DNA from: Escherichia virus TH44
Sequence record: MT446415.1
Strand: one strand, 5' to 3'
Length of the DNA: 64,000 nt
The stretch's first letter is position 1. Every line of letters begins with the position of its first letter. Below, in pieces: positions 6,736 through 14,600 of the stretch. The notes under the pieces were generated by a model. That model ran no database searches, was not told the DNA's origin, and was given only the letters and a program-made list of their open reading frames with translations. The position numbers and the translations under genes were made by a program.

Positions 6736-6743
6736 TATAAATA
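6736..6743 (+). promoter_or_regulatory. T4-type late promoter TATAAATA for gene 4; divergent 7/8 late-like box on the other strand (6754-6761) for gene 53
   Basis: Exact TATAAATA about 28 nt before gene 4 ATG with SD taggagg in between. Confidence 0.6.
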
Positions 6744-11751: not shown

Positions 11752-12006
11752 ATGAAAACTTATCAAGAATTTATTACTGAATCTGCAAATACAAAAGTTG
11801 AGTTTGCTTATGTTGGTTCGCCGCGTGGCAGTTTTTCCAATGAGGAATTCCGTCGTTCACTGGACAATTTCATGCAGTTAAGTGCTGAAGTATCGCATGA
11901 TGGTCGTTATGACATCGTTACTATTAGCGGTTCTGAAGACCTTATCAAAAAGTGGCACAAGCAGAAAGATGTTGAGATGCGTTACTATCGTATCCCTAAA
12001 AAATAA
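11752..12006 (+). CDS. CTS-tagged internal-protein-like protein
   Basis: Starts MKTYQEFITES at internal ATG of track ORF 11722. Confidence 0.7.
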   Translation: MKTYQEFITESANTKVEFAYVGSPRGSFSNEEFRRSLDNFMQLSAEVSHDGRYDIVTISGSEDLIKKWHKQKDVEMRYYRIPKK

Positions 12007-13234: not shown

Positions 13235-13504
13235 ATGTTAGTATTAAAATTAGCTTTTTACGACCCTAAAACAAAGACAACCACTACCAAACGTTGCTCT
13301 ATCTCGTATGAGTGTCAATTTGGCGAAATTCAGCATCCAACAGGCGAAACCTTTATGTCAATTGGTTGTTCAACATTCAATAAAGTCAAATTAATCCCGT
13401 TGGTTAATACGGCGGCTTATCTGGTTGCACCAGAAGAAATGACTTATCATACAATTCAGCATATGGTTAAAGATGATAATGCTCCCGCTGGATTTGTAAT
13501 TTAA
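13235..13504 (+). CDS. hypothetical protein
   Basis: ATG 7 nt after gagg (track ORF begins at GTG 13229). Confidence 0.5.
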   Translation: MLVLKLAFYDPKTKTTTTKRCSISYECQFGEIQHPTGETFMSIGCSTFNKVKLIPLVNTAAYLVAPEEMTYHTIQHMVKDDNAPAGFVI

Positions 13505-13509
13505 TTTTA

Positions 13510-13583
13510 GGCCCTGTAGCTCAATTGGTTAGAGCATCCGGCTCATAACTGGCAGGTTTCCGGTTCAAGTCCGGATGGGGCCA
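13510..13583 (+). tRNA. tRNA with CAT anticodon (Met or lysidine-type Ile2)
   Basis: Manual cloverleaf: acceptor ggccctg/tggggcc, D arm gctc..gagc, anticodon loop ctCATaa, T arm tccgg-ttcaagt-ccgga; resembles E. coli tRNA-Ile2. Confidence 0.8.
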
Positions 13584-13585
13584 CC

Positions 13586-13662
13586 CGGGGTGTAGCTCAA
13601 TTGTATAGAGCAACGGTCTTCTAAACCGTAGGTTGTGGGTTAGAATCCCACCACCCCGACCA
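13586..13662 (+). tRNA. tRNA-Arg (anticodon TCT), CCA encoded
   Basis: Manual cloverleaf: acceptor cggggtg/caccccg, anticodon stem acggt/accgt, loop ctTCTaa, T arm gtggg-ttagaat-cccac, then A+CCA. Confidence 0.88.
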
Positions 13663-13677
13663 ATTACTGAGGATATT

Positions 13678-13917
13678 ATGGTTATTAGTGAATCATATGC
13701 AGTTATGGATATAACCAGCAACGAGCTGGTTTATAGCTTTGATGAGTTTGACGAAAATGATAAACAAGTCCCATGGTTTGCATTAACTGCTCCACCTGAA
13801 CATAATAAATATCTAAGTTTCCCGACTCGCAGACTAGCAACAAATTTTATGGAATTCAATGACCTTGATTCCAATTATAAGGTTGTTAAAGTCAAATTAG
13901 CTATTACAATTGAATGA
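13678..13917 (+). CDS. hypothetical protein
   Basis: ATG after gagga; track ORF 13633 would overlap the tRNA. Confidence 0.55.
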   Translation: MVISESYAVMDITSNELVYSFDEFDENDKQVPWFALTAPPEHNKYLSFPTRRLATNFMEFNDLDSNYKVVKVKLAITIE

Positions 13918-14110
13918 GAAACCGGGTCGCTACCGGTAAGTCGTCGGACTGATGTTCCCTGGAGTATAGTTCCTCCCACGGTTTTACTGTGTTCTGGTTC
14001 TTTACTATCACAGCTGAAACGGCGCACCCTTTTAACGGAGTTTTTCCAGAGCGGACGGTGCGTCCGGTAGTACGAGAAATCAGAGCGGGTGGTGCATCCG
14101 GTACTATGGA
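13918..14110 (+). ncRNA. candidate small stable RNA (ORF-free, stem-rich)
   Basis: About 190 nt with no ORF; repeated GC-rich stems (accgggtcgctaccggt, ggacggtgcgtccggtag, gggtggtgcatccggtac); T4 has small stable RNAs in its tRNA region. Confidence 0.3.
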
Positions 14111-14111
14111 A

Positions 14112-14119
14112 TATAAATA
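14112..14119 (+). promoter_or_regulatory. T4-type late promoter TATAAATA
   Basis: Exact octamer 32 nt before the 14151 CTS-like gene. Confidence 0.55.
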
Positions 14120-14150
14120 TTAACAACAACCCTAATAATGGAAAAACAAA

Positions 14151-14534
14151 ATGCTTACATATGCAGAATTTTTAAATCGCAATACCATCACTGAATCCGT
14201 ACTGACTGAAGCTGGCAAATTTTCTTTAGTGGCTCCAGAAAAAGCCGGTGTTTCAATTGGTGACCGTGTTATGTTCAAGAAACCAGTTAATGGCGTTTCT
14301 TGGGGTATCGTAACTGGGTTTGGCATCAAAGCTAAAGACGTTAAAAACGCCGCAGCACCTGGTGCTAAACTGGCTGGTTCCAAAGTTTCAACTTATATGG
14401 TTCGCCCTAAACAGTCTCCAGGTAATGGTGCTGCTGACTGGGTTGGTGCTCCAATCGAAATCGCTCGTGATAAATTCTTGAACATCACTGACCGTGCCAA
14501 CGAACGCGCTGCAATGGCATTCGCTCGCGGATAA
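14151..14534 (+). CDS. CTS-like small protein
   Basis: Starts MLTYAEFLNRN (variant of the MKTYQEF tag); late promoter upstream. Confidence 0.6.
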   Translation: MLTYAEFLNRNTITESVLTEAGKFSLVAPEKAGVSIGDRVMFKKPVNGVSWGIVTGFGIKAKDVKNAAAPGAKLAGSKVSTYMVRPKQSPGNGAADWVGAPIEIARDKFLNITDRANERAAMAFARG

Positions 14535-14571
14535 GAACACTTGCCTTGCAGGTGGAACCCCGACAAGGTAT

Positions 14572-14600
14572 AGCCCCTTCCGAAAGGTTGGGGCTTTTTT
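14572..14600 (+). terminator. rho-independent terminator
   Basis: agcccc-ttccgaaaggtt-ggggct hairpin followed by TTTTTT. Confidence 0.75.

Follow-up and report, generated by a model that had tools for sequence, protein, structure and literature searches.

The segment at positions 13918-14110 of the 64,000-nt stretch of Escherichia virus TH44 DNA studied here (record MT446415.1; the whole stretch is hereafter called the window) consists of two parts. The first, at 13914-14028 on the + strand, is almost certainly the rnaD gene of this phage, that is, the counterpart of the gene for the species 2 small stable RNA of bacteriophage T4, and the second, at 14029-14110, is probably the separate leader of a cassette of about 500 bp and carries two tandem hairpins, H1 and H2. 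We hold this two-part explanation as a whole with good confidence. In the initial annotation, made from the letters and a list of open reading frames (ORFs), the segment had been treated as a single stem-rich unit of about 190 nt, possibly a structured RNA analogous to the small stable RNAs of T4 or a divergent tRNA-like element. That hunch is half right: a T4 small-RNA homolog takes up only the 5′ 60% of the segment, and the eye-catching repeats are part of another, lineage-restricted cis-element. The single unit had to be given up, the rnaD part and the hairpin part being separate and differing in distribution (741 versus 15 phage records). The coordinates of all the features are collected in Table 1.

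The rnaD homolog

Knowledge of rnaD and rnaC goes back to the first studies of T4 tRNAs. In the T4 reference genome (RefSeq NC_000866) rnaD, coding for species 2 RNA, is located at 71053-71171 on the minus strand right after the tRNA-Arg gene and is followed by rnaC, coding for species 1 RNA, and a terminator. Alignment to T4 rnaD showed the first ~50 and the last ~25 nt to be nearly identical and the middle to be diverged, with a local alignment score of 97 versus 14.3 ± 2.1 for shuffled sequences. The covariance model R1, described below, has its sole match in the 64 kb at 13917-14028 (113 bits, E-value 4e-25). A sensitive BLAST search with 13900-14125 matched 741 phage records, most of them covering only query positions ~18-129, and one of the matches falls under a feature annotated as rnaD. 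The homolog lies on the same strand as the tRNA genes, downstream of tRNA-Arg at the distal end of the tRNA cluster 13510-13662, of which it is a part. No family was returned by Rfam at E ≤ 10 either for 13918-14110 or for the rnaC/rnaD locus of T4 itself. The proposed analogy with the T4 small stable RNAs is therefore borne out for 13914-14028, the rnaD homolog, and fails for the near-repeat hairpins, which lie outside rnaD.

Homologs of rnaD were drawn from IMG/VR and GenBank and each of them was folded alone. The individual folds agree on P1, a hairpin at the 5′ end, on a long bent arm that P2 closes, on the helices P3 and P4, and on a distal domain. The P1 pairs vary among phages from C-G to A-U, U-A and G-C, and P2 joins GUCGUCG to CGGCG(C)AC near the rnaD 3′ end. 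Compensatory changes in P1-P4a were first counted on a MAFFT alignment of 17 sequences, in which 92.9% of the cells were paired (32-47% in slid controls) and six pairs had double changes versus 2.1 in shuffles, none of the 500 shuffles reaching six. The model R1 was built from this alignment, and its 21 distinct matches were then counted, giving double changes in 10 of the 20 pairs and 90.9% of cells paired (slid controls 32-40%); the innermost P2 pair is G-C in 10 of these homologs and C-G in another 10. Judged from the sequences of the 21 distinct homologs, the four rnaD helices are supported by compensatory changes. The A/U changes that seem to covary between CUGA[W]G and CAGC[W]G are those of the first P3 pair. 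In TH41 (locus L029, 492-601) both strands of the P2/P3 internal loop are swapped for the complementary GCCUG and CAGGC, which supports the placement of the two loop strands side by side; the replacements are GGACUGAWG by GGGGC-CUG and CAGCWGAAAC by CAUCAGGCAC, and they create a new GCCUG/CAGGC helix.

The distal domain has three or more mutually unrelated versions (types A/A′, B and C). A long AU-rich distal hairpin is found in T4 and VR20, and the module with the core UUCCUCCCACAGUUUNACUGUGUUCUGG (type B) is found in the window, in T2-type phages and in several non-T4 phages. The domain (window 13953-14015) is swapped as a module among phages otherwise 95-98% identical here, with type B in the window and pEC-M719 and type A′ in VR20, MN01 and DK-13.

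RNA folding and conservation of structure in homologous regions had been suggested as checks in the initial annotation, and the two gave different answers. Folding energies were not above chance for any piece: compared with shuffles, the z-score was -1.28 (+ strand) and 0.01 (- strand) for 13918-14110 and, for the parts taken separately, -0.32 (rnaD) and -1.14 (hairpins), so thermodynamics is uninformative either way. Conserved structure was found, with covarying helices in rnaD and covarying stems in H1 and H2. The stems are thus judged to be real on homology and covariation, not on thermodynamics.

The resemblance to T4 rnaD comprises homologous sequence, the tRNA strand, the distal position in the cluster and the P1-P2-P3-P4 architecture, and the same terminator module follows, here after an insertion. 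Unlike T4 rnaD, which has a long AU-rich hairpin as its distal domain, the window homolog has the type B module that T2-like phages and non-T4 myoviruses also carry; it is preceded by an 82-aa ORF standing between it and tRNA-Arg and is not followed by rnaC, and it has the 3′ end CACCC (CACCA in T4) and a U-U mismatch in P3.

Some of these points, together with others, weigh against the reading set out above. The covariation counts use structures derived from the same sequences, and the second rnaD alignment (A5, 21 homologs) was fitted to the model. The family fold for the window rnaD has an energy of -29.0 kcal/mol compared with -31.2 kcal/mol for the minimum free energy (MFE) structure, i.e. 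the two are 2.2 kcal/mol apart, and the U-U mismatch falls on the first P3 pair. The 3′ CCA encoded in T4 rnaD is conserved neither here nor in several homologs, and the stability, ends and processing of the RNA in this phage are inferred.

It is extremely improbable that 13914-14110 is instead protein-coding, through an 84-aa antisense ORF, or a degenerate tRNA. The statement that the segment contains no ORF holds for conserved ORFs and fails for mechanical ones, which cross the segment on both strands (Table 1). The 84-aa ORF is annotated as a coding sequence (CDS, ‘hypothetical protein’) on the minus strand of the relative pEC-M719-6WT.2, and the segment sits within a tRNA cluster; however, the ORF is broken in VR20 into pieces of 41 and 33 aa and is absent from T4, the region shares homology with an RNA gene known from experiments, and ARAGORN found only the two tRNAs and no cloverleaf in 13918-14110. 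Neither ARAGORN nor Rfam has a tRNA there, and the 3′ part shows no similarity above shuffles to the two tRNAs or to rnaC and rnaD, so the suggestion of a divergent tRNA-like element is not upheld. In GenBank record OQ845958 a ‘hypothetical protein’ (locus L002, 3476-3730, minus strand) lies antisense to rnaD and the hairpins and is equivalent to window 13875-14129 (-); since the antisense ORF is not conserved, this is probably a mis-annotation. The 44-aa + strand ORF is hit by a 1-nt indel among relatives.

As for the role of the RNA, it would be transcribed together with tRNA-Met, tRNA-Arg and the 82-aa ORF, and host RNases would then excise it as a stable RNA of ~115 nt that acts in trans, its likely contact surface being the P1 loop, which is invariant, and the internal loop between P2 and P3. 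A review and an omics paper still give the functions of T4 rnaC and rnaD as unknown, and a discrete stable RNA of ~120 nt released from the tRNA precursor is known for T4 only (PMC3014915, PMC9697503). An omics study of 2022 listed both T4 RNAs as late RNAs of unknown function and included northern-blot validation with an RNAC probe (PMC9697503). In an evolution experiment of 2025, a single convergent single-nucleotide polymorphism (SNP) arose in the rnaD homolog of the T4-like phage BW1 in all lines adapted to a semi-permissive host, and this host-specific fitness is the only phenotype reported for an rnaD homolog (PMC12685909). The SNP could not be placed in a helix, the rnaD orientation and numbering in that paper being ambiguous, and the literature search found no paper giving rnaD or rnaC a mechanism; in the SegB paper, the terms used gave no mention of the two RNAs.

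The window belongs to a T4-like phage: megablast of 13400-14300 matched 555 phage records, with ECML-359 and pEC-M719-6WT.2 as the top matches (98% identity), and the nearest relatives fetched are labeled Straboviridae, Tevenvirinae, Gaprivervirus. The TGA stop of the 82-aa ORF overlaps the first bases of the rnaD homolog. An ORF in this position is also present in some other T4-likes, and in T4 itself rnaD comes directly after tRNA-Arg. A sigma-70-like site, TTGTTA-N16-TACAAT, lies at 13883-13910 on the + strand, ending 7 nt before the conserved rnaD start (13917), and could give rnaD a start of its own where an ORF separates it from the tRNAs; overall the scan for such sites was not above chance (4 found versus 6.8 expected).

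The family extends beyond T4-like phages. The model R1 also matches phi92-like and Certrevirus-type phages and several IMG/VR contigs of 140-153 kb, and the structural core of rnaD is shared by phages ranging from T4-likes to Vequintavirinae-type myoviruses. Among non-T4 myoviruses, rnaD-like RNAs that have this P1-P4 core are found in tRNA clusters of, for example, PsgM04F/phiWec188 (~150 kb), several of the IMG/VR contigs just mentioned, and Certrevirus PBES02 and POP18, in the latter two of which P1 is expanded by an insert of ~50 nt; the loci are L016 (1501-1612), L022/L023 (384-490), L153, L154, L158, L168 and L185. A ‘mini rnaD’ paralog of ~65 nt, AATGAAGACTATTATATAGTCAAGCCGTCG...CACCGGCGCAAC, is located between tRNA-Arg and rnaD in L009, L010 and L011 and has its own P1-like hairpin and P2-like closing helix without P3 or P4. 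Kosakonia phage 305 (L015) has an rnaD-like match at 188-281 (26 bits), and within its positions 1000-1440 an rnaC-like 3′ end is seen around 1090-1160, between the tRNAs and a hairpin pair of the kind described in the next section, along with further GC-rich structured stretches that are unannotated.

Table 1 Features in and around the segment 13918-14110 of the window
Feature	Position	Strand	Evidence or remark
tRNA-Met	13510-13585	+	ARAGORN; Rfam tRNA (the two tRNAs score 62 and 74 bits)
tRNA-Arg(UCU)	13586-13662	+	ARAGORN; Rfam tRNA (the two tRNAs score 62 and 74 bits)
82-aa ORF, ATG start, phrog_33509, function unknown	13669-13917	+	Between tRNA-Arg and rnaD
Mechanical ORF, 84 aa	13875-14129	-	ORF list
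rnaD homolog (T4 species 2 small stable RNA), ~115 nt	13914-14028	+	Ends set by alignment to T4 annotation
P1 hairpin, ACCGG / CCGGU, loop GUCGCUA	13921-13937	+	Pairing probability 0.92-0.99
Palindrome accgggtcgctaccggt	13921-13937	+	Equals the P1 hairpin of rnaD
P2 closing helix	13940-13946 with 14020-14024 and 14026-14027, C14025 bulged	+	Covariation
P3	13953-13956 / 14012-14015	+	4 of 4 pairs with double changes
P4a	13960-13962 / 14008-14010	+	Base of P4, within P2
Hairpin of the exchangeable distal domain	13977-13991	+	Enclosed by P2
Mechanical ORF, 44 aa	13989-14123	+	ORF list
Putative masking strand GUUUUUCCA	14040-14048	+	Exact complement of UGGAAAAAC (14139-14147)
Hairpin H1, stem 14052-14057 / 14061-14066, loop GUG	14049-14069	+	Covariation, covariance model
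Palindrome ggacggtgcgtccggtag	within 14049-14069	+	In hairpin H1
Hairpin H2, stem 14086-14091 / 14095-14100, loop GUG; one G·U pair here	14083-14103	+	Covariation, covariance model
Palindrome gggtggtgcatccggtac	within 14083-14103	+	In hairpin H2
Late promoter, T4-type, TATAAATA	14112-14119	+	32 nt before the start codon of gene 14151
Shine-Dalgarno (SD) strand UGGAAAAAC	14139-14147	+	Holds the likely SD GGA of gene 14151
127-aa internal-protein-like gene (gene 14151)	14151-14534	+	No family match
Terminator module	14536-14600	+	Homologous to the module after T4 rnaC, and directly after rnaD in other T4-likes (alignment)

The tandem hairpins and the inserted cassette

All three palindromes pointed out in the initial annotation were found in place, one being the P1 hairpin of rnaD and the other two lying in H1 and H2. 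The last two had been called near-repeats, and indeed a 21-nt motif, GAGCGGRYGGTGCRYCCGGTA, occurs exactly twice in the 64 kb versus 0.00 expected from 100 shuffles. Both hairpins have the form C-NNNN-G GUG C-NNNN-G with GAG directly 5′. In Gaprivervirus relatives the variable arms are GGAC/GTCC or GGGC/GCCC in H1 and GGAT/ATCC or GGGT/ATCC in H2. The same tandem pair is present in Kanagawavirus (Kosakonia phage 305, IME523, CIP9 and Q7622), where a late-promoter-like box and a gene follow closely, with H1 being AAGC/GCTT and the outer pair of H2 being U-A in three of the four phages (IME523, CIP9 and Q7622). Over eight distinct H1/H2 instances, 48 of 48 cells are paired and five of six pairs have double changes, slid controls reaching 15-56%. 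The G·U pairs would be C·A on the opposite strand, which favors an RNA read from the + strand.

The only setting in which the pair is found, in two genera, is immediately before a late promoter and an internal-protein-like gene. Neither the rest of the window nor 31 loci contained another match to R2, a covariance model of the hairpins. In an IMG/VR scan for the frame CNGAGCNNNNGGTGCNNNNGGTA, among the matches listed only VR20 was left after the filter for complementary stems, the other listed matches being collagen-like or Ser/Gly-rich coding repeats. The hairpins were also considered as intrinsic terminators and rejected, since no U-run follows them (GUAGUAC and GUACUAU follow instead) and they are not listed by the terminator scan. 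H1 and H2 have mutually complementary 3′ flanks (UAGUAC, 14067-14072, and GUACUA, 14101-14106), which lengthen the H2 stem in predicted folds; relatives have the flank UAGUAU, which keeps a U·G pair.

Full-length matches to 14028-14150 were obtained in 15 phage records only, in addition to a 26-nt match in Kosakonia phage 305. The cassette of ~500 bp would consist of the leader, the late promoter and the internal-protein-like gene, inserted between rnaD and the conserved terminator. T4 rnaC scores 15 against 14029-14111 (shuffles 13.9 ± 2.1) and is absent from this locus; in T4 it occupies the slot between rnaD and the terminator that is filled here by 14029-14534. As the same terminator module comes after the cassette gene, after T4 rnaC or directly after rnaD, 14029-14534 is regarded as an insertion in the rnaC slot of T4. 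This two-hairpin module, AACACTTGCC...GGGGCTTTTT, is conserved as the 3′ limit of the tRNA/stable-RNA unit irrespective of the element before it, which is rnaC in T4, rnaD in L004 and the internal-protein-like gene in the window; the module is located at window 14536-14600, L001 4826-4912 (-) and L004 7400-7500.

The 127-aa product of gene 14151 has no family in PHROGs and Pfam. Its N-terminus, MLTYAEFLNRNTITE|S, resembles that of the T4 internal protein IPI (MKTFKEF...STITE|A), which we take, as established for T4, to be a capsid-targeting sequence with the prohead-protease site of injected internal proteins. From this short motif it is inferred that the gene encodes an internal protein. Only the first ~25 residues are shared with the product of the Kosakonia phage gene located behind the same hairpins. 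The ORF 11752-12006 (+) also carries an N-terminus of the internal-protein type (MKTYQEFITES...), and therefore there appear to be several internal-protein-like genes in the region. The box TATAAATA, which we take from established knowledge of T4 to be the consensus of its late promoters, occurs at 6736, 9183, 10477, 14112, 30537 and 63785, i.e. all six window copies are on the + strand, and their total equals the chance expectation for both strands combined.

Possible roles of the hairpins

No conserved role is assigned to H1 and H2 here. One possibility, somewhat doubtful and resting on predicted folds, is that the leader masks the ribosome-binding site of gene 14151 in this clade. In transcripts reading through from the tRNA operon, GUUUUUCCA would pair with UGGAAAAAC around H1 and H2, hiding the ribosome-binding site, and late transcripts, starting after the late promoter at ~14125, would be devoid of the masking strand and would be translated. 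The likely SD is 8 nt before the ATG. When the leader is folded alone, the 9-bp masking stem has a probability of 0.95 and closes a junction with H1 and the extended H2, and it is retained in the RNAalifold consensus of six relatives. A complement of at least 9 nt within 130 nt upstream was found for only 0.5% of the ATG sites in the window, gene 14151 being the only such site with TATAAATA between the strands, and the predicted accessibility of the SD is higher in late transcripts.

Such an arrangement has precedents in T4, where masked translation of e, soc, 49 and I-TevI is relieved by a late promoter (PMC3014915). As in those genes, the SD is predicted to pair with a strand present in long early or read-through transcripts only, and a late promoter lies between the strands. 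Unlike in those genes, 99 nt separate the strands here, with two hairpins between them that are conserved independently, and the masking stem is predicted only, lacks covariation and is not conserved in Kanagawavirus phages with the same hairpins.

Other facts speak against masking as well. The stem is invariant in the clade, which is why no covariation is seen; in MN01 and TH55 one A of the SD strand is lost without compensation; and the stem disappears from the prediction once unprocessed rnaD is included in the fold. In Kanagawavirus the SD is predicted to be free behind the same hairpins, and masking is therefore not the conserved job of H1 and H2; it was rejected in that capacity and kept as a clade-specific possibility. 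Both hairpins are, moreover, degenerate in EcS1 and CHI14 before the homologous gene.

The main rival for H1 and H2 is that they are signals for RNA processing or stability and not parts of a translational mask, which we consider unlikely on balance. They might direct an endonucleolytic cut that frees the rnaD 3′ end, as a cut at the neighboring rnaC does in T4. Alternatively, once the downstream mRNA has been processed, they might shield its 5′ end and thereby preserve read-through transcripts of the internal-protein-like gene. Covarying stems combined with an invariant loop G-GUG-C and an invariant 5′ flank GAG are typical of a recognised RNA hairpin, the G·U pairs occur in the + strand sense only, and in both genera the hairpins are always placed where a stable-RNA unit, or else its terminator, meets the gene that follows. 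The missing rnaC, which leaves rnaD without its T4 downstream partner, and the lack of conserved SD masking in Kanagawavirus point the same way. Yet no known RNase recognition motif was identified in the hairpins, and other T4-likes have rnaD directly before the terminator without any hairpins, from which it follows that rnaD maturation does not need H1 and H2. In Kanagawavirus a strong terminator-like hairpin precedes the pair, which would thus be transcribed only by read-through, and the degenerate state of the pair in EcS1 and CHI14 tells against this reading too.

It was also considered whether the whole of 13914-14110 is one longer stable RNA, with rnaD extended by H1 and H2 standing in for rnaC; this is in essence the single-RNA idea of the initial annotation, and it is improbable. 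No conserved ORFs are present in the region, the hairpins share the strand of rnaD and follow it after only 20 nt, rnaD and the hairpin region pair with each other in global folds, and GGUGCGYC, made up of the hairpin loop and its 3′ arm, is complementary to GGCGCACC at the 3′ end of rnaD. The phylogenetic distributions of the two parts, however, differ as given above, and the Kanagawavirus hairpins lie more than 1 kb away from the rnaD-like RNA, with a terminator-like hairpin in between. Long-range pairing of this kind disrupts the rnaD fold that covariation supports, and the z-score of the complete segment is only that quoted above; the global MFE folds, which are no better than shuffles, were accordingly discarded.

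Still less probable is that H1 and H2 act as DNA, either as palindromic protein-binding sites or as recombination or cassette-boundary sequences similar to PeSLs, i.e. stem-loops placed directly before early sigma-70-type promoters and dispersed in the hyperplastic regions of T4-like genomes (PMC4122927). As DNA, each hairpin is a perfect palindrome around a 3-bp spacer, and the two stand in a mosaic region where close relatives have exchanged the middle domain of rnaD, rnaC and internal-protein-like genes; a part in such shuffling in the hyperplastic regions has been proposed for conserved motifs of promoters and stem-loops (PMC4122927). On the other hand, the stems change sequence and stay complementary (GGAC to AAGC), which is hard to square with sequence-specific binding of a dimer, and the G·T pairs are C·A mismatches on the other strand. 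The resemblance to PeSLs consists of a conserved stem-loop and a promoter at the edge of a swappable gene in a mosaic region. PeSLs combine a terminator-like stem-loop of other consensus sequence with an early sigma-70 promoter and are dispersed over the genome, whereas here two hairpins without U-tracts precede a late promoter at a single locus, with no other copy matched by R2. Membership in the PeSL class was rejected, as no sigma-70-like site is listed downstream of H1 and H2, where TATAAATA follows instead, and the motif is not dispersed.

A last view takes the two parts of the segment together and is speculative. H1 and H2 would be a new recognition signal, made of tandem hairpins whose stems covary freely in the invariant frame GAGC...G-GUG-C...G and read by a phage or host protein or an RNase at the junction of the stable-RNA operon and the injected-protein cassette in at least two genera, and rnaD would be a host-range or anti-defence RNA, not a by-product of processing. 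We give this joint idea little weight.

Significance for the rnaD family and T4-like phages

The locus gives no function for rnaD or rnaC, and it offers three handles on them. The first is a covariation-supported rnaD fold with an invariant core and an exchangeable distal module. The second is that the rnaD family, for which there is no Rfam model, reaches the tRNA clusters of unrelated large myoviruses. The third is a naturally occurring locus where a cassette with an internal-protein-like gene takes the place of rnaC. In addition, the antisense ‘hypothetical protein’ annotated in the record of a relative is corrected as probably spurious, and the tandem hairpins constitute a small, clean, covarying cis-element that is testable.

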